Origin: Candidatus Cloacimonadales bacterium
Lineage (GTDB): Bacteria > Cloacimonadota > Cloacimonadia > Cloacimonadales > JAIOQZ01
DNA length: 64,000 nucleotides
NCBI GenBank assembly: GCA_963662655.2
Contig: CAXXTU010000002.1
Location: forward strand, 1,696,001 to 1,760,000
Direction of reading: 5' to 3'
The notes under the pieces are model-generated. The model did no database searches, had not been told where the DNA came from, and saw only the letters and a list, made by a program, of their open reading frames with translations. The position numbers were made by a program, and so were the translations under genes. The stretch's first letter is position 1. Every line of letters begins with the position of its first letter. Positions 53,676 through 62,375 of this stretch are shown in pieces.

Positions 53676-55619
53676 CTATTCTTCCGGTTTGATATTCACT
53701 TTGAAACTGAAAACGGAACCCTTTCCGGGCTGGCTATTCACTGAAATCATTCCACCCATCAACTCCACAAGTCTTGCACAGATCGTTAGACCAAGCCCTG
53801 TTCCGCGGTAACGGCGAGTCGTGGATTTCGATAGCTGCTCGAACGCCGCGAAGATTTTCTCCCGGTCCATCTCGCTAATGCCGATACCGCTATCCTCGAT
53901 CTTCACGTCAAGCCATCCGTCCTCGTAATCGCACTTCATCAAGACAAAGCCCGAGCTCGTGAATTTTATCGCATTGCTCAAAAGATTCCAAATAACCTGG
54001 CTTATCCTTCCATCGTCGCCGACAGCGATCTCGGGAACGTTTCTGGAGATGTACAGATCGTACTCGATACCCTTGGCCTGGGCAATCTCCTTGTGCATAT
54101 CAAATACCGAGCGAAGCAATCGCGGAAGGTTGATAATATGCTTCTCGATGTGCAGCGTATGCGTCTCGATTTTAGAAAAATCGAGAATCGTGTTCACGAT
54201 GTTCATCAGCTGCTTTCCGGAAGAATTGATCGCCTCCAGCTTCTCACGCTTCTCATGGTTTTCTTCTTCTGCGAGCAAGATTTCGGCGAATCCGATAACC
54301 GCGTTCAAAGGCGTCTGTATCTCATGACTCACGTTGGTGAGAAACTCGTTCTTGCTTCGATTGGCCGCTTCGGATGTTATGATTGCATCCTGCAACTGTA
54401 CAACCGTATCCTTGTGGCTTTTAATCTCACGAGAGAGGGCCATCGTGCGCTTCTCGACAATTGATTCGAGGTCGTCGTTGATATCGATGATGGCCTTCTC
54501 CTTTTCATCGATCTGCCGCTGCATGAACAAGATGTTGTTGGAGATTTTCGTCAGCTCGTCCTTTTCTGTAAGATCGAGCTTCTCTTCCCGGCTTCCACTC
54601 GCAATACGGTTCAGCGCATGGTTGATCACGGTGATCCTGTCGATTATATTCTTGCCGATATAGCCAGATACGATGAAGTACGTAATGACGATGGAAAGCA
54701 TGGCGATGACGATGGAAATGATCAGGATCATCCGCTGATGAACGTGAATGGAAGAGAAATCGAAGACGATCTTGATCCACAGGTCGTCTTCCGGCACGGA
54801 GGATTTCACCACGCGAAACGCTGAAGGATAATAGCTTTCAACGAATCCATTGTTCTCTATGGTGAACGGGCGCTTGTTTTTCACCATTTCGTAAATCTCA
54901 TCGCTCATCTGCGTCTCTTCGCGGATCAGCGACCACTGTCCAACGGGATTGACCGAATAGATGTCGAGCTCGATAATAAAGGAGCTGTTATCGGCAACCT
55001 CCTGGAACAAATCGCCGGACAGGTAGCCGCCCAACGCTTCGGAGAAATACATGCTTATATACTCTTGCAAACTGATGGAAACTTCGATAATGATGTCGGA
55101 ATCGATGGGGCTGTAATAAGCGTATTTCTTGATCGTGCCTGTTTTACTCGATATCGAAATTCGTTCTGTCTGCACAATCCCCTGATTCAAGATTTCCTGC
55201 AAGAAGCGATTGAAGGTCTTGGATATTTTACGAAGATTGAAATTCAAGTCGGGCTCGAATGTCGTGTTGAAAATCAGACCGTCCTGATCGATCAGATAGA
55301 GGTCGTTAAAACCGTACTTGTTCAGGAGAGCCTTCATGTCCCGTTGCGAAAGGTTATTCAAATCGTTCTTTGAAGCCAGTAATTCGGTAGCCAATCCCGG
55401 GAGCTCTTGTTCAATCTTCAGATCCATCCGCTTCTCAATCTCGAACATCAGCATGTCATATTCATTCAATCTGGATGCGATTGACCGGTGCGTGTCATTG
55501 ATGATCGAATCTTTCAATAATCCCGAGTAGTAGAACGAAGCCAGATAGATGCAGCCACTAACCAGAATGATTGAAGATGCAATGATAATGAGGAAGTAGC
55601 GCGTCAGCTTTTTTTTCAT
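53676..55619 (-). CDS. Membrane sensor histidine kinase (periplasmic sensor, HAMP, HisKA, HATPase)
   Basis: Two TM helices; SHEIQTPLN, NLLSNAIKFT, DSGIGI, GTGLGL, GKGSVF. Confidence 0.93.
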   Translation of the reverse strand: MKKKLTRYFLIIIASSIILVSGCIYLASFYYSGLLKDSIINDTHRSIASRLNEYDMLMFEIEKRMDLKIEQELPGLATELLASKNDLNNLSQRDMKALLNKYGFNDLYLIDQDGLIFNTTFEPDLNFNLRKISKTFNRFLQEILNQGIVQTERISISSKTGTIKKYAYYSPIDSDIIIEVSISLQEYISMYFSEALGGYLSGDLFQEVADNSSFIIELDIYSVNPVGQWSLIREETQMSDEIYEMVKNKRPFTIENNGFVESYYPSAFRVVKSSVPEDDLWIKIVFDFSSIHVHQRMILIISIVIAMLSIVITYFIVSGYIGKNIIDRITVINHALNRIASGSREEKLDLTEKDELTKISNNILFMQRQIDEKEKAIIDINDDLESIVEKRTMALSREIKSHKDTVVQLQDAIITSEAANRSKNEFLTNVSHEIQTPLNAVIGFAEILLAEEENHEKREKLEAINSSGKQLMNIVNTILDFSKIETHTLHIEKHIINLPRLLRSVFDMHKEIAQAKGIEYDLYISRNVPEIAVGDDGRISQVIWNLLSNAIKFTSSGFVLMKCDYEDGWLDVKIEDSGIGISEMDREKIFAAFEQLSKSTTRRYRGTGLGLTICARLVELMGGMISVNSQPGKGSVFSFKVNIKPEE

Positions 55620-55645
55620 AAGATGTTTTTCCGCGAAACAGGCAA

Positions 55646-55885
55646 TTACATGTAGTATTTTTTCTTTCTGCGGTGCCCCTTTTTACCGCCTTTCCGCATC
55701 TTAATTTCCCGTTTTTTGTCTTTTGTAATTCTTGCGATAATCAGGCCAATAACAGGCGTCAGAACTAACGATAGAATGAAACCGGTCCCGAATCTGTTCC
55801 CACGTTGGTAATTATAGTACGCCACGACTAAACACAATGCAAAGTAAACAAGAAAAACGAGTACGCTAATGAATCCCATGCTCAT
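55646..55885 (-). CDS. Small membrane protein with basic tail
   Basis: Two TM segments (GFILSLVLTPVIGLII); GGAG RBS. Confidence 0.65.
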   Translation of the reverse strand: MSMGFISVLVFLVYFALCLVVAYYNYQRGNRFGTGFILSLVLTPVIGLIIARITKDKKREIKMRKGGKKGHRRKKKYYM

Positions 55886-56047
55886 TATAAGAACTCCATC
55901 CGGATAAAAAGTCAGAATTTATTAATAAGCTAAAACTAAATGAAGAAATAGCAAAAAATAAAGCTCGCTCATTTTGTGAAGATGGCCATGTCCATGAAAA
56001 TGAAGGCTCCACGCCTAGCGCGAACCGTCAGAAGTGCGAAGGTTCCG

Positions 56048-56929
56048 TTATTTTCTTGTTACCGTGTATCCGCGATCCTGAAGCATCTTGACCAGACCAC
56101 GCTCTCCAAACATGTGCCCGACTCCAATAACAACGAAGTATTTGTTAGCGGAAGAGAGGAATCGCGACATTTTCTCAATCATCGCGGGGTGACGATCGTA
56201 GATGATTGCATCGTATAGCGGCTTCATCTCCTCAGAATTGACTTCACTCAAGAACATCTCTTTGATAACTTTGTCATCGCCGCGTTTCCAGGCATCCGTT
56301 ATCTTTGAAATGTTCTGATAAATCTCTGTTTGGGTTGTCATAGCATCCACCAGCTGAAGCTCTTGAAGGGAATCGGGGAAGGAATTGAACAGGTTGAGCT
56401 GGTAGATCAAGCCTTCCAGCTCGATGATCCCTTTTCCTTCCCTGCGTGCCTTGTTCATGAAGTATAGATCGATGCCGTGCTCTCCCGTAAAACCTGCCTT
56501 CGCGATCTCGCTCATTTGAATGGTCATCGAAACGAGCCAGGGTTTGTAAACCTGTATGGAGGCCAGGTTCATGCCGTACTCGGTGAGCCTATCGCTCAGC
56601 AGCTTGATCGTACCATTCGAGAGGTGATCCTTGATCGATTCACCGTATGGGTAAGATGCGAGCTTGATCATCTCCTGCTGGATGCTTCCCTGGTTTTGCG
56701 TATCGAGATCCGCTTCCACCACCAGGCTGTCGCATCCTTCAAAGGCTTGTTCGATCTTGGGTTGCAATGGATAGAAATCCTTGTTCGCCACGTGAATGGA
56801 TCCGAGAAGGTACATCGTTGTCGTTTCGGATTTGACTTCCCAAAGAAATCCGGTCGATTGTCCAAACAGCGACGGGATTATCGTTATTAAGGCAAGGAAC
56901 GTTAGCGCTTTAAGAGATTTATTTCTCAT
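56048..56929 (-). CDS. TraB/GumN family protein
   Basis: FLWEV, YLLGSIH, GIDLYF, LE..YQL, VIGVGHM.GERG. Confidence 0.9.
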   Translation of the reverse strand: MRNKSLKALTFLALITIIPSLFGQSTGFLWEVKSETTTMYLLGSIHVANKDFYPLQPKIEQAFEGCDSLVVEADLDTQNQGSIQQEMIKLASYPYGESIKDHLSNGTIKLLSDRLTEYGMNLASIQVYKPWLVSMTIQMSEIAKAGFTGEHGIDLYFMNKARREGKGIIELEGLIYQLNLFNSFPDSLQELQLVDAMTTQTEIYQNISKITDAWKRGDDKVIKEMFLSEVNSEEMKPLYDAIIYDRHPAMIEKMSRFLSSANKYFVVIGVGHMFGERGLVKMLQDRGYTVTRK

Positions 56930-57118
56930 GGTTTCCTCCAACTGCAAGTTACTTGTTCGCAAGATAGCATGATAGCGAGTTTTGTCAATCTCGCTTTTGG
57001 GGATATCATCCCAATTCTTTTTTTCTGGACGGAAATTTCATTTTGCGTAATTTTTACAATATACTCAGAATTCATAGATTGGAACCGGCATCAGAATGCT
57101 TTACCACATGGAGGAACA

Positions 57119-58033
57119 ATGCGTCTAATCACCCGTTCGGATTTCGATGGACTCGTCTGCGCAGCCTTGCTGGAAGAATTAAACATTATTGATGAAATTC
57201 TTTATACCCATCCAAAGGATATTCAAGACGGCAAAGTTCCCGTCACTCAAAACGACATTCTTGCAAATGTTCCGTACAGCAGCGGATGCGGTATATGGTT
57301 CGATCACCACCTCAGCGAACACGAAAGGCAGCAGCTCGATTTCGAATTTGATGGCGCAAGCGAAAACAAGCCCAGTTGCGCACGTGTGATATTCGAATAT
57401 TACCATCCGAAGTTTGGAAATCAGCTCGAGCGTTTTCGCGAGATCATCGACGCGGTGGACATTGCAGACAGCGGTCGTTACACCAAAGAGGACATCATCG
57501 ATCCGCAGGGTTGGATGATGCTGGCTTTCATCGCGGATCCCCGTACCGGATTCGGTTATCAGCGAACCTTCCGCATCAGTAATTTCGAGCTGATGAAGTC
57601 GCTTCCCTCAAGATTACGCAACCAGACGATCGAAGAGATACTCGGCTCACCGGATTTCATGGAGAGGATCGACACATACCGAGAGCAGATCGAAGAATAC
57701 AAGAAATTCATCCAAGAACACGGCAGGGCCGAAGGAGACGCGATCATTCTTGATTTCAGGGGCATTCACGATATTCCGACCGGCAATCGATTTATCGAAT
57801 ACGTCTTGTTCCCGGAGCAAAACATCTCCGTGCGGATGGTCGATTCGCGCGATCGCCATCGCGTAATGATATCCGTAGGCCACAGCACGATCAATCGTAC
57901 ATCGAAAGTGAATGTAGGATCCATGCTGCTTCAGTTTGGCGGAGGGGGACATTTCCGGGTTGGGACATGCCAGGTGATGGCAGGAGAGGCTGGAATTGTT
58001 CTGAACCGAATATTACACGACATCAACAAATAA
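57119..58033 (+). CDS. DHH-family phosphoesterase (nanoRNase/exopolyphosphatase-related)
   Basis: RLITRSDFDGLVCA, FDHH, GGGGH; GGAGG RBS. Confidence 0.88.
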   Translation: MRLITRSDFDGLVCAALLEELNIIDEILYTHPKDIQDGKVPVTQNDILANVPYSSGCGIWFDHHLSEHERQQLDFEFDGASENKPSCARVIFEYYHPKFGNQLERFREIIDAVDIADSGRYTKEDIIDPQGWMMLAFIADPRTGFGYQRTFRISNFELMKSLPSRLRNQTIEEILGSPDFMERIDTYREQIEEYKKFIQEHGRAEGDAIILDFRGIHDIPTGNRFIEYVLFPEQNISVRMVDSRDRHRVMISVGHSTINRTSKVNVGSMLLQFGGGGHFRVGTCQVMAGEAGIVLNRILHDINK

Positions 58034-58044
58034 TGGGGTAATTT

Positions 58045-58386
58045 ATGGAAAGAATTATTGCTCGATGCGGGTTATTTTGTGACGAGTGCGGCGCATACAA
58101 GGCGACACTCGCGGATGACAATGAGCTCAGGGCTCAAGTCTCGCAGGAGTGGTCGAAGATGTACGGCGTCGACATCAAGCCGGAGAATATCCATTGTCTT
58201 TCGTGCCAGGATGAAAGGGTGCTTTTTCACCATTGTACCGTCTGCGAAATGAGAAAGTGCGCAGTCGAGAGAAATCTCGCCAATTGCGGACTTTGCGCCG
58301 ACTACCCTTGCGAGATCATTGCGAAGTTCTTCGAGTTTGTTCCTGATTGTAAAACCGTTCTGGACAAGATTCACTCGGAGCGATAG
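58045..58386 (+). CDS. DUF3795 family Cys-rich protein
   Basis: IARCGLFCDEC, CLSC, CEMRKC, CGLCADYPC. Confidence 0.85.
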   Translation: MERIIARCGLFCDECGAYKATLADDNELRAQVSQEWSKMYGVDIKPENIHCLSCQDERVLFHHCTVCEMRKCAVERNLANCGLCADYPCEIIAKFFEFVPDCKTVLDKIHSER

Positions 58387-58404
58387 AAGAAAAAGTTTTT
58401 TTTG

Positions 58405-58434
58405 ACACCGGACACCTGTCCGGTGTTTTTTTTT
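58405..58434 (+). terminator. Intrinsic terminator
   Basis: ACACCGGACA-CC-TGTCCGGTGT followed by a T tract. Confidence 0.85.
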
Positions 58435-58465
58435 GCTGCAAACTCAAGTCTGCTGGCTAGCTCCT

Positions 58466-58646
58466 GCGGCGGGACGGCGCCCGAAACCATTCATCCAGCG
58501 CACATTCGCAAGAATTGGAGGGTCTGCGGATGCATGGGAATGTGCGCTGGATTTCATAAGGGTTTCGGTAAAAGCATTGGGAAGCTGTTTTTCGCCAACA
58601 GCTTCCCAATGCTTTTGTGCGCGAAGCGCACGCGCCGTCCCGCCGC
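58466..58646. other. Intergenic four-way-junction structured element (candidate ncRNA or ssDNA element)
   Basis: Perfect 15-bp outer stem enclosing three arms of 8+15 bp, 20 bp and 6 bp. Confidence 0.7.
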
Positions 58647-58796
58647 GCGGATGGTGCACAACGCAAGGATTGGGACTCGCTGATTTCTCACCTTGGGGCA
58701 CACCAGGGAGAGTCCGAACAATTTTTATTGACAACGATCTTTAAGTAATCGATAAATCATGTCATAAGGGAAAAAGTAAAAAATGAGGATAAAGAC

Positions 58797-61700
58797 ATGA
58801 GAAAAACGCTTTCATTTTTGACGCTTTTTGCGCTGGTATTGCCCATGCTGGCAATAGCGCTGAACGGAGACCCCAAGAGTTGGGATTCGAATGATTTCAT
58901 CGGCTTCGACCAGATTGGCGACAGCGATTTTGCGGATATCTCGTCAACGTATGCGCGAATCGAGGATGGCAGACTCTACTACCGCATCACGTTTGTGAAT
59001 ATGTCGCAGCGTAGCGATAACCGAATGACGGGCGACAGATTTGCCGACTCCGATGCAAGCTTGTCGCTGATGATAACGGATAACGCCCTGACTCAGGAAC
59101 TCAGTGTTCCGCTGTCGGATATCACGGTAAGAAACGGGCAATATCACTCGGTCAGAACGCCTCAGAACAACATGCTCGAGATCGAAATGCCGTGGAGCGG
59201 ATCAAGCAGCACTGAAACCGTTCGCTTCGATTGCTGCATTGAGCATGACGGCCGGATCGTCGAAAAGTTCACCGATCCATTGACCGATAGCGGTCGAGGT
59301 GGATCGCGCGGAGGCAATGCTGCGTTCGTTCATCACGGTAACCAGGGACTGACCTATACCGAGGTGTTTTACGGACAGTACCCGCAGGAAACCAGCGGAT
59401 TCGACGAGGTGCTGGAAGTCCACCAGGCAACGGGCATACCCGGTAATTTCCACATGTCTGGCACCCTGATGCCTGCCGCCGAATGGCACAATCCGGAGTT
59501 CAACGACTGGCTGGTAAACGGGGTCGAGAACGGCTACTGCGCCATGCTCTCATCTGCATTGGGACAGCACATCATGCCGTTCGTTCAGAATGAGATGAAC
59601 AACTGGGCCGTATCGGTCGAGAGCGATATGGTAGCGTACCGCTACGGATACGAACCGCATGTCGCCTGGGTTCCCGAACGCGTTTGGCTGAACCCGGGAG
59701 AATATCCCGAAGCCGGCGTTATTGACTGGCTTGGCGATAACTGGGTCCAGCATGGCGTCAATGCCGTGATCCTGGACGATAGCCCGCACCTCTGGTCCGG
59801 CGACAACCATAAAATCCACTGGATGAACAACAATCAGGGTATCACCCTCCGCTGCATACCCATCGATAACGAGTTCGTCGGATATATGCATTACGACGCA
59901 GGTAGCGCCATGAACCGCATCAACAGCACCGGCCAGTACGGAATCTGCGTTTACGGTACCGACTGGGAAGTGGCGGCCGAGATGAACGAACATCACGACT
60001 CCTCCTTCCTGGACAACTACGAAAGCGTCCTCTGGTACTGCCACGACAACTACCCTGCAGTCAATATCTGGGCGTTGGATTCCGCCATCAACAACAGCGA
60101 TTTCAACGGAAACGGCATCGACATCACGCCCGGAACGTACGGCCTTTGCGGAGGCGGGGACGGCTATGGCGGAAGCAACAACTCCTGGTACACCAACTGG
60201 GCGGGAACGGGATCGCACTCCGATCAGCACAGCCCACAATGGAACTACGGAACCGTATGGAACAACGCCTACGAAAACATCATGGCGAGCCCGGACAATA
60301 CCCTCTCGCAGCTCGCGTGGTATGTGCTTATGATCAACCTTCACGAAACCGCGTGGCACACAAGTGGAGAAATCGCAGACTGGGAGCACCGCTACTCGGC
60401 ACACATGAAGAACGCTAACGTTTACGCGGAAGCGTCTCGCTGGGCCAATGGGGACTACGAGCATACATCGGCGGCCTATCTCTCCGATATCGACAGAGAC
60501 GGCGTTGACGAGTTGGTGATGCACAACGATAAAATCTTTGCCGTTTTCGAATCGATCGGAGGACGCGCCCAGTGGATGTTCTGCAAAGACGGCAACGGAA
60601 ACGCTACATCCGTGGTCGGATCAGACGTAGCATACTACTCGGAAACGGACGGCGATTACAACGAAGGCTCCAGCAACCACGTCGCGGCTTTCTCGGATGT
60701 ATCGCCCAACTACCAGCACAGCCTGTACGCTTTCGATATTCTTCAGGGAGAAGGCGACCAGTTGATCGTTACTTTCACACATGAAGGAGTCTTCCGTTAT
60801 TGCACCCTCGATACAGGCAACAGTTACATCGATGTGAGCAACACTATCAATACCGGCGACCTCTACACCAAATCCGGCTGGACACCCGATCTGCTGGACA
60901 TTATTTGGTCCGGTAAATCACATATCCAACGCATGTGGGGAGATGACGCCTCCTACGCGGGACGGCGCAACAGCGCTACCGGCGCAACGGCAGCTTACGT
61001 GTTGGGAACCGCCGGCGCTTCGCACAACGGAACGTTTGAGGGCACCCTCGTGATGGGTGATGAAATCAAGGGCAGCGGTACTTTCCGTTACTTCCTTTAC
61101 GCCGGCTATACTTCCGATCCTTACGACGAATACTACACCAAGGTTACCGAGCTGGACAACCTCGCCACCCAGCTTGCTGACGATATCCCGCCGCAGATCG
61201 TGAACAGCGCTGCATATCATGCGGGAAACAATGTACTTCAGATCGTCTTCAACGAAGACGTGAGCCAGGCAACGGCGGAGAACGCAGACAACTACTCACT
61301 CAACGGATTCAGCGGCACGTACGAGGTTAGTGACGTGATGCTCTCCCACAGCCGCAAGGTCACCTTATGGCTCGATGGCACAATCCAGCCCGGAGACTCC
61401 GGCAACGTCATCGTAAGCGGCGTGGAAGACCTCAACGGAAACGTCATTCAGAACGGAGCAAACCAGGCAGCTCTCACATCCATGGTCATGCCCCACCTGG
61501 TTGGCACGATGAATAGCTGGACCCCTTCGAACCTCGACTACGATTTTGAAATCGTGGCAAACGGTCTGTGGAAACTCACGACCACCCTTCCGGCAGGATC
61601 CAATGAGTACAAGGTGATCGAATCCAACGATTGGGACAGTAACGACTGGCCGTCGGAGAACCAGATCATCGAGCTCGACGTCGATACGGAAATTACTTTC

Positions 61701-62375
61701 TGGGCGAACTGCGGGATGATGCCTCAGGTGAAATCGGGTGACGAATACGTTTGCCACAGCCCCAATCCACCGACTGTGGTCGGAGATTTCCTTTCCGAGA
61801 TCGGCGGTACCGACTGGAACCAGGAAACGACACTTACAAGCATGAACGACAACGGAACCGACGGTGACGAAGCTGCCGGAGACGGTCGTTTCAGCCTTCT
61901 GGTGAACATTCCAGGCGGCGATTACGAGTTCAAGGTAGTCCTCAATAACAACTGGGATCAGAACACATCCGGAAATGTAAACCTCCACATACCTTCGGCA
62001 GGATCGGAAGTGCTTTTCGTATACGAGATGTTCCAGAACCTTGTGTTCGTAAATGTTTTCAATGATGTTACGGAAGATCAGGCTGGCGATGTACCGGCGA
62101 TCCCGACAATCCAGTCTGTTTACCCGAATCCATTCAATCCGGACGTGAACATACGTTTCTCGCTTCCACACTCAGCGCATGTGGAAATCGACGTGTACAA
62201 CGTTGTTGGCCAGAAGGTTAAGAAACTCGTCAACGACATGATGGACGCAGGTAAACACAGCATTGTATGGCATGGCGATACCAATGAAGGGAAAACGTCA
62301 TCGTCCGGCGTGTATTTCTTCGTGTTGAAGACAGGCGACCAGAAATATGTGAAACGGGCGGTCATGATAAAATAG
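58797..62375 (+). CDS. Secreted GH57-like alpha-glucan-active enzyme with accessory beta-sandwich domains and FlgD-Ig CTD
   Basis: Signal peptide; HHGNQ, NFHMSGTL, WVPERVW, GTDWE resemble the GH57 conserved regions; VGTMNSW/YEFKV CBM-like repeats; VYPNPFNP CTD. Confidence 0.7.
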   Translation: MRKTLSFLTLFALVLPMLAIALNGDPKSWDSNDFIGFDQIGDSDFADISSTYARIEDGRLYYRITFVNMSQRSDNRMTGDRFADSDASLSLMITDNALTQELSVPLSDITVRNGQYHSVRTPQNNMLEIEMPWSGSSSTETVRFDCCIEHDGRIVEKFTDPLTDSGRGGSRGGNAAFVHHGNQGLTYTEVFYGQYPQETSGFDEVLEVHQATGIPGNFHMSGTLMPAAEWHNPEFNDWLVNGVENGYCAMLSSALGQHIMPFVQNEMNNWAVSVESDMVAYRYGYEPHVAWVPERVWLNPGEYPEAGVIDWLGDNWVQHGVNAVILDDSPHLWSGDNHKIHWMNNNQGITLRCIPIDNEFVGYMHYDAGSAMNRINSTGQYGICVYGTDWEVAAEMNEHHDSSFLDNYESVLWYCHDNYPAVNIWALDSAINNSDFNGNGIDITPGTYGLCGGGDGYGGSNNSWYTNWAGTGSHSDQHSPQWNYGTVWNNAYENIMASPDNTLSQLAWYVLMINLHETAWHTSGEIADWEHRYSAHMKNANVYAEASRWANGDYEHTSAAYLSDIDRDGVDELVMHNDKIFAVFESIGGRAQWMFCKDGNGNATSVVGSDVAYYSETDGDYNEGSSNHVAAFSDVSPNYQHSLYAFDILQGEGDQLIVTFTHEGVFRYCTLDTGNSYIDVSNTINTGDLYTKSGWTPDLLDIIWSGKSHIQRMWGDDASYAGRRNSATGATAAYVLGTAGASHNGTFEGTLVMGDEIKGSGTFRYFLYAGYTSDPYDEYYTKVTELDNLATQLADDIPPQIVNSAAYHAGNNVLQIVFNEDVSQATAENADNYSLNGFSGTYEVSDVMLSHSRKVTLWLDGTIQPGDSGNVIVSGVEDLNGNVIQNGANQAALTSMVMPHLVGTMNSWTPSNLDYDFEIVANGLWKLTTTLPAGSNEYKVIESNDWDSNDWPSENQIIELDVDTEITFWANCGMMPQVKSGDEYVCHSPNPPTVVGDFLSEIGGTDWNQETTLTSMNDNGTDGDEAAGDGRFSLLVNIPGGDYEFKVVLNNNWDQNTSGNVNLHIPSAGSEVLFVYEMFQNLVFVNVFNDVTEDQAGDVPAIPTIQSVYPNPFNPDVNIRFSLPHSAHVEIDVYNVVGQKVKKLVNDMMDAGKHSIVWHGDTNEGKTSSSGVYFFVLKTGDQKYVKRAVMIK

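Follow-up and report, generated by a model that had tools for sequence, protein, structure and literature searches.

The four-way junction element and its neighbourhood

The window is a stretch of 64,000 nucleotides from the source genome (G000; 3.81 Mb, 98.95% complete, with contigs C1 and C2). At 58466..58646 it carries a complete four-way-junction repeat unit of the long-P2/long-P3 size class, with the G-N-A loop on the + strand. The element lies between a DUF3795 gene upstream and a GH57 gene downstream. An intrinsic-terminator-like hairpin of the DUF3795 gene (58404..58435, + strand; hairpin 58404-58427 and a T tract) is a host feature outside the repeat, in agreement with the first-pass annotation, which had located the element after a terminator and before a GH57-like gene. 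On the other side, a TTGACA hexamer (58728..58733, + strand) is found upstream of the GH57 gene, and also upstream of GH57 orthologues in relatives without the repeat. A promoter scan at the hexamer gave no full promoter site; the hexamer is probably the -35 box of the host.

The junction is composed of five helices, all of which had been proposed from the sequence and all of which are perfect Watson-Crick (coordinates below refer to the + strand). First, the outer stem P1 pairs the 5' arm (58466..58480) with the 3' arm (58632..58646) at 15/15 positions, forming a terminal inverted repeat with a GGCG core that is near-invariant across the family. The P2 arm (88 nt, 58481..58568) consists of an 8-bp base (58481-58488/58561-58568; 8/8), an internal loop, a 15-bp stem (58493-58507/58538-58552; 15/15) and a variable tip. 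P3 (58570..58616; 20/20) is a perfect 20-bp hairpin of hypervariable sequence. Finally, P4 (58617..58631; 6/6) is a 6-bp stem with a GAA triloop, a DNA mini-hairpin motif. A single T at 58569 is the only unpaired base at the junction, as had been claimed. The element folds as RNA with an MFE of -121.4 kcal/mol (z -12.9) and as DNA with an MFE of -81.2 kcal/mol (z -13.8), and in both cases 0/200 shuffles fold equally well.

The left flank (58441..58465, + strand) shows a weak family consensus, which reflects either a target preference or a decayed end, and the right flank (58647..58670, + strand) shows a weak consensus of the type usually seen on the left side. Together with a flip score of -5.5, the core of the window copy is apparently inverted with respect to its flanks. 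The stretch is spanned by single contigs from two runs of one sample with zero differences, although the assembly was possibly built from this very sample, which is thus not independent; as far as can be told, the element is no assembly artefact. Comparison of three contig sets over the element gave no joint or excised form, a result that says nothing on rare excision.

Family members and their fold

BLAST of the window element against G000 returned a full-length paralogue that is 85% identical (C2:1692360-1692540), the closest one, and dozens of further matches to the P4-P1 end. Profile and structural descriptor searches yielded 76 dispersed copies, to which one was added later, giving 77 (75 complete and two truncated on the 5' side); the structural descriptor had 0 matches on reversed C2, the control. 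The copies stand beside unrelated genes in all four orientations, and 72/76 lie outside any crude ORF longer than 500 nt, the other four overlapping unverified crude ORF calls. The first-pass annotation had implied a singular element tied to the GH57 gene. This does not hold, since the 77 copies adjoin unrelated genes and the GH57 orthologues of the three congeneric genomes used for comparison (G001, G002 and G003) are without it in 3/3 cases. The element is one copy of a dispersed non-coding repeat family, likely a mobile one that folds as DNA, rather than an RNA gene unique to this locus.

Calculated with DNA parameters, P1 closes exactly three hairpins in 74/75 complete copies, which are 99-203 nt long and leave 0-4 unpaired bases at the junction. 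Only P4, the P1 core and the base of P2 are conserved in sequence. P3 and the distal part of P2 vary freely in sequence, yet remain Watson-Crick paired; P3 in particular is a near-perfect stem (median 19 bp) of almost free sequence. P2 falls into two length classes, 16-32 nt or 60-95 nt (mostly 79-95), and these hold even where distal P2 is unpaired. Perfect P1 pairing extends over 8-24 bp (median 15; 72 copies), so that terminal inverted repeats are present, and P1 differs in length and sequence between copies with changes matched on both arms. In 14 aligned copies, 24/38 pairs show changes in both partners and the slid controls collapse, a count that leans in favour of the fold because the structure was derived from the same sequences.

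We also compared 10 hand-picked pairs of close copies over 562 aligned base pairs. The large majority (478) are unchanged, 28 have become a different Watson-Crick pair through changes in both partners (14 of them by transversions), 50 have changed on one side (7 to G.T and 10 to A.C) and 6 are broken; at unpaired positions, 91/299 differ. By score, the core is inverted between its flanks in 13/72 copies, about six of them clearly, the window copy included. In addition, 5/16 of the triloops that are not G-N-A are the reverse complement of G-N-A (p 0.003). Inversions and double changes of this kind fit template switching at inverted repeats.

The P4 loops bear on whether the fold acts as DNA or RNA. 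Among 76 copies, 56 have a G-N-A loop with all four bases at N (GAA 28, GGA 19, GCA 6, GTA 3), and GCGNAGC mini-hairpins are described as extra-stable in DNA, their RNA counterparts being much less so (PMC13037366). Mismatches show no wobble preference, with G.T and A.C at 10:10 in P3 and 3:2 in P2. Both results strengthen the hint of a DNA-level fold given in the first-pass annotation. Less in line with a purely DNA reading, the G-N-A strand is the lower in energy in only 19/72 copies (DNA parameters).

If the strand opposite the G-N-A loops were under selection as RNA, the element would be a 3'-end stabiliser, a terminator helper or a small RNA. In 49/76 copies the P4 end points to the 3' end of a gene on the opposite strand (p 0.015), which hints at a transcription-linked constraint, and the same bias is seen as 29 vs 12 in tandem contexts (p 0.012). 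The strong covariation (24/38 pairs changed on both sides) and a copy that G001 and G003 share at one site, though with different arms, agree with this reading, as does the Bacillus repeat bcr1, which is transcribed and keeps a cruciform-like RNA fold (PMC3184786). However, G.U is tolerated on neither strand, half of the double changes are transversions, the strand bearing the G-N-A loops is antisense to the neighbouring gene more often than the other strand, and the copies stand beside unrelated genes in every orientation. No Rfam 15 family matches at the gathering score in window positions 55000-62000, 19 copies and 9 further loci, where generic hairpin matches are sub-threshold only; ARAGORN detected no tRNA or tmRNA in the window. 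The first-pass annotation had likewise recognised no known RNA. We regard an RNA element as very doubtful.

Several observations concern the interiors and the surroundings of the copies. Family interiors have no match beyond chance in the rest of G000 except for one arm, and an origin of the interiors as captured spacers was rejected on this basis. The exception is the P3 arm of the copy at C2:1356016, which matches the second hairpin of family B. Family B is a second dispersed repeat of ~120 nt with two long hairpins and imperfect terminal inverted repeats; it is found at C2:2139561-2139760, C2:1253031-1253161 and ~18 more places in G000, and also at L116:1209-1265 in G002. A maintained outer stem was rejected as well, since each flank pairs with its own partner no more than 1-2 SD better than with others. 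A distant outer stem (score >=22) is present in 4/72 copies, against 1.7 expected, and in 2/3 of the relatives' copies. Perfect outer stems 30-55 nt away on both sides are seen at L022:1270-1570, L024:1380-1565 and G000 C2:940156 and C2:1165358. At C2:~100900-100960 (L159, - strand), a P1-like hairpin without an interior is bordered by family-like flanks; the hairpin, at C2:~100930, is possibly an empty target or a deletion product.

Mobility and the search for a mobilising enzyme

A pattern search allowing two mismatches gave 55 matches in G000, one each in G001, G002 and G003, and 0 in 37 other relatives. The single copies of the three congeneric genomes all form the full junction. Over the element, but not beyond it, the G002 copy shares 90.8% identity with G000 C1:115433-115548, and the genes flanking the G002 copy have no tblastn match in G000. 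Because the flanks are unrelated and coding DNA between these congeneric species is only ~72-79% identical, we infer a recent cross-species transfer. The distribution at orthologous sites is patchy. A site adjacent to queD holds a copy in both G001 and G003, the arms differing in length between the two, and none in G000 and G002, and the copies upstream of GH57, ridA, ksgA and gidA in G000 are absent there in 3/3 relatives, where gene order differs so that no clean empty site is available. A near-identical copy with unrelated flanks, together with these patchy sites, indicates that the element has moved.

In wider searches, the fold is absent from one metagenome match and six viral matches to the family, and from 10 extra short-pattern matches in G001-G003. 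An order-wide P1-P2 pattern matched in 30/201 genomes with 0 copies among the 19 loci inspected, and a covariance-model search matched in 2/151 genomes, with only 24 candidates scored per genome and the long copy known in G003 missed, which makes it a weak negative.

Where two G000 copies are 79-90% identical in their interiors, their flanks are close to the background of 50-54%, alignments of close copies stop at about the P1 ends, and a weak consensus extends over ~25 nt on each side of the copies. Our reading is a unit bounded by P1 that is loosely selective for its target; alternatively, interior exchange between old copies would yield the same picture of flanks and interiors. The boundaries of the mobile unit are putative, as close strains offer no clean empty/filled pair. 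At 73/74 junctions there is no target-site duplication (TSD), and the longest direct repeat in the flanks is 4.9 vs 5.2 for random partners, a test that rests on the inferred ends and leaves some room for a duplication at other ends. If one IS-linked segmental duplicate (97%) is set aside, the two most similar copies share only 90% identity, and thus copying in the G000 lineage has probably stopped or is no longer frequent.

The possibility of a MITE had been raised in the first-pass annotation, and it holds as far as the element is multi-copy and mobile but not with regard to target duplication or an IS with matching ends. As a classical MITE, P1 would be the terminal inverted repeat (TIR) of a DDE transposon now missing or diverged beyond recognition, and the cross fold a by-product of internal palindromes perfected by template switching. 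The perfect P1 repeat (median 15 bp), the end of similarity at about the P1 ends and the size range, which is MITE-like (PMC3184786), speak for such an origin. The near-complete lack of a TSD (73/74 junctions), with flank direct repeats at background, stands against it. Furthermore, the two multicopy IS of G000 (ISL3 and IS3-like) have ends unrelated to P1, and the matched drift of both P1 arms would not normally be tolerated by a transposase binding site. A classical MITE also leaves the strand-specific G-N-A loop and the fixed three-hairpin topology unexplained, and we consider it unlikely. Beside this, 2/13 ISL3 copies end ~20-25 nt from a four-way 5' arm, across an A/T tract (G000 C2:2159253 and 2629395; L090 and L010).

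We surveyed 151 ORF stretches next to copies, covering 76/77 copies, and read the remaining copy separately. Mobility genes among the 151 neighbouring ORFs are limited to three occurrences of an ISL3 transposase and a single XerC-like recombinase. No Y1/RAYT gene was detected in G000 by PF01797, NF047646, tblastn or HMMs built from relatives' proteins; a weak RAYT-HMM match near a copy is an ABC permease. PF04986 had 0 matches in four genomes, and its positive control was also without a match anywhere. None of the six tyrosine recombinase matches in G000 reaches the TIGR02249 cut-off for an integron integrase (0/6; two were scored as partial stretches). The single reverse transcriptase (RT) of G000 was rejected as the mobiliser, being an unrelated DRT/Abi-like fragment ~10 kb from the nearest copy. 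Its gene at L089:4400-5609 (G000 C2:~981400-982600) contains an internal TGA and is most similar, below the cut-off, to the defence RTs Drt3b/Drt4. G000 also contains an integrative island (L095; C2:3402000-3421000) with three tyrosine recombinases, an IS3-like insertion and, by sequence reading, primase-like and methylase-like genes. Long segments repeated at 88-99% identity (C1:5500-25200; C2:1-10000, 475000-510000, 2730000-2760000 and 3290000-3322000) are probably related prophage or integrative elements.

There are 11 Y1 matches in the three congeneric genomes, and the eight loci examined (L081-L088) represent six distinct sites. One RAYT and one IS200-type gene are over the NCBIfam cut-off. 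The Y1 genes are flanked by their own tandem short palindromes, and none of the eight loci examined out of 11 has a match to the four-way family. Three of the six distinct sites map within 61-115 nt of a G000 copy (p 0.01 per site, 0.08 per flank), an overlap that may reflect shared insertion-tolerant intergenic hot spots. Two Y1 sites, after xerC and before pcrB, are each used in two species. IS200/IS605 elements prefer the lagging strand; the four-way copies show no leading/lagging bias (36 vs 35 copies).

The relatives also contain a REP-like repeat, family C, with 57 exact 13-mer matches in G002, 79 in G003 and 5 in G001 (for example L161:1238-1366 and L163 in G003). Each member is an imperfect palindrome around a small hairpin, which in many cases has a GCA or GAA cap, and members occur as singlets, tandem arrays and inverted doublets. 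An inverted doublet can fold into the same cross (30 loci folded), and family C occupies the ridA and ksgA sites of G003 where G000 has the four-way family. The two families are unrelated in sequence, and family C has no element-like BLAST match in G000. This suggests an inverted REP-like doublet as the ancestor of the four-way fold, its two halves having drifted so far apart that the junction alone is left.

A distinct Holliday-junction-shaped ssDNA cassette could be moved or flipped by machinery other than HUH, namely host junction-processing enzymes, a tyrosine recombinase or template switching alone, and would enter a degenerate target hairpin via the P1 core. The four-way geometry with 0-4 unpaired bases in 74/75 copies, the inverted cores, the one P3 arm from another repeat family and the lack of an HUH gene in G000 are all consistent with it. 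The interior-less hairpin at C2:~100930 with its family-like flanks points the same way, but it is the single such site found and may be a deletion product. Likewise, the weak consensus of ~25 nt on both flanks agrees with this reading, although the flanks of close pairs are unrelated and outer flanks covary with their own partner little above other partners. No integron integrase is over the cut-off among the six tyrosine recombinase matches, and only 1/77 copies adjoins a recombinase gene (XerC-like), for which chance suffices. Such a cassette is improbable on balance. A broader version, which we hold to be rather unlikely, places the element in an undescribed cross-phylum class of Holliday-junction-shaped ssDNA cassettes. 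Their recognition code would be only geometry, arm length and one G-N-A mini-hairpin; they would integrate into a degenerate target hairpin and flip inside it, exchange arms with other repeats and pass between species with no transposase of their own, via a host junction-processing or unknown enzyme.

Proposed mechanism and comparison with known repeats

The explanation that we favour, somewhat better than evenly, is a non-autonomous element of the REP/REPIN type, folded likely as ssDNA and spread in trans by an HUH (Y1/RAYT) nuclease that is no longer seen in G000. The link to an HUH enzyme is indirect, through the Y1 genes of the relatives, the proximity of Y1 sites to copies and the cross-folding family C. 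Weighing against this explanation are the lack of a detected Y1/RAYT gene in G000, the missing guide tetranucleotide, the Y1 genes bordered by repeats other than this family, the even split between leading and lagging strand, the small share of copies in which the G-N-A strand is the lower in energy, and the orientation bias of the P4 end. The P1-bounded unit would fold while the DNA is transiently single-stranded, at the replication fork or during transcription. The HUH enzyme, acting in trans, would then recognize the invariant P1 core, the G-N-A mini-hairpin P4 and the junction geometry, and would cut and rejoin without target duplication, insertion favouring intergenic positions that match a loose consensus. 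As structural filler, P3 and distal P2 would matter through their length and pairing and not through their sequence. Template switching between arms would keep the stems perfect and flip loops and cores, and hairpin repeats would exchange arms. Finally, the mobilising nuclease would have been lost, leaving the element orphaned.

The four-way family is real, and it is a new structural variant among repeats of the REP/REPIN/MITE type. No description of it was found in the literature; supplements and subscription papers, which lie outside this coverage, might list it in repeat catalogues. What began as a candidate 'new RNA gene' is thus replaced by a well-sampled family of shape-conserved DNA repeats, and its 75 complete copies give precise rules: the three-hairpin topology is fixed, P2 has two length classes, the cap is G-N-A and the P3 sequence is free.

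We compared the family with the known repeat classes. REPIN, REP and BIME repeats with RAYT share the most general features, being extragenic, species-specific, multi-copy, patchy in relatives and predicted to fold as ssDNA with inverted arms, with no TSD seen (PMC3116915, PMC6006769). REP is defined by a GTAG/GTGG tetranucleotide 0-2 nt 5' of the hairpin foot (PMC6006769). In the four-way family this guide tetranucleotide is missing from the foot of P1 (either strand) and of P4 in all copies scanned (0/74). Nor is the family an inverted doublet of one REP unit, since P2 and P4 are unlike in sequence as well as size, and P1 is distinct from P3; the inverted doublet is found instead in the unrelated family C of G002 and G003. 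Furthermore, no RAYT was detected in G000, none of the eight Y1 loci examined in the relatives is flanked by the four-way family, and the conserved fold is a branched four-way junction rather than a simple hairpin. CGTC-tagged repeats are likewise described as being without a dedicated transposase (PMC3733652). The Y1/RAYT candidates of the same genus make the spread of REP-like repeats without a neighbouring RAYT testable in vitro.

The closest published cruciform repeat is bcr1 of the Bacillus cereus group. With a length of ~155 bp, bcr1 resembles the four-way family in size, in a cruciform-like fold kept by compensatory changes and in non-conserved genomic positions, but it has two inner stem-loops, 5-bp flanking direct repeats and a conserved sequence (PMC3184786). 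In the four-way family, P1 encloses three hairpins, the arms are hypervariable, a DNA mini-hairpin forms the cap and a TSD is missing. The bacterial MITEs Correia, RUP and Nezha are also short, non-coding and TIR-bounded with a stable fold (PMC3184786); for the four-way family, in contrast, neither a target duplication nor a cognate IS was found, and its TIR drifts with both arms matched.

The four-way family has a further likeness to integron attC sites, in which structure is conserved over sequence, the terminal region is variable and one strand is marked. In contrast to attC, the four-way copies are dispersed singletons in all orientations and not cassette arrays, G000 has no integron integrase over the cut-off, and, read by eye, the family is without RYYYAAC...GTTRRRY ends. 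If geometry and not sequence is recognized in the four-way family, the attC principle would be extended to a dispersed element.
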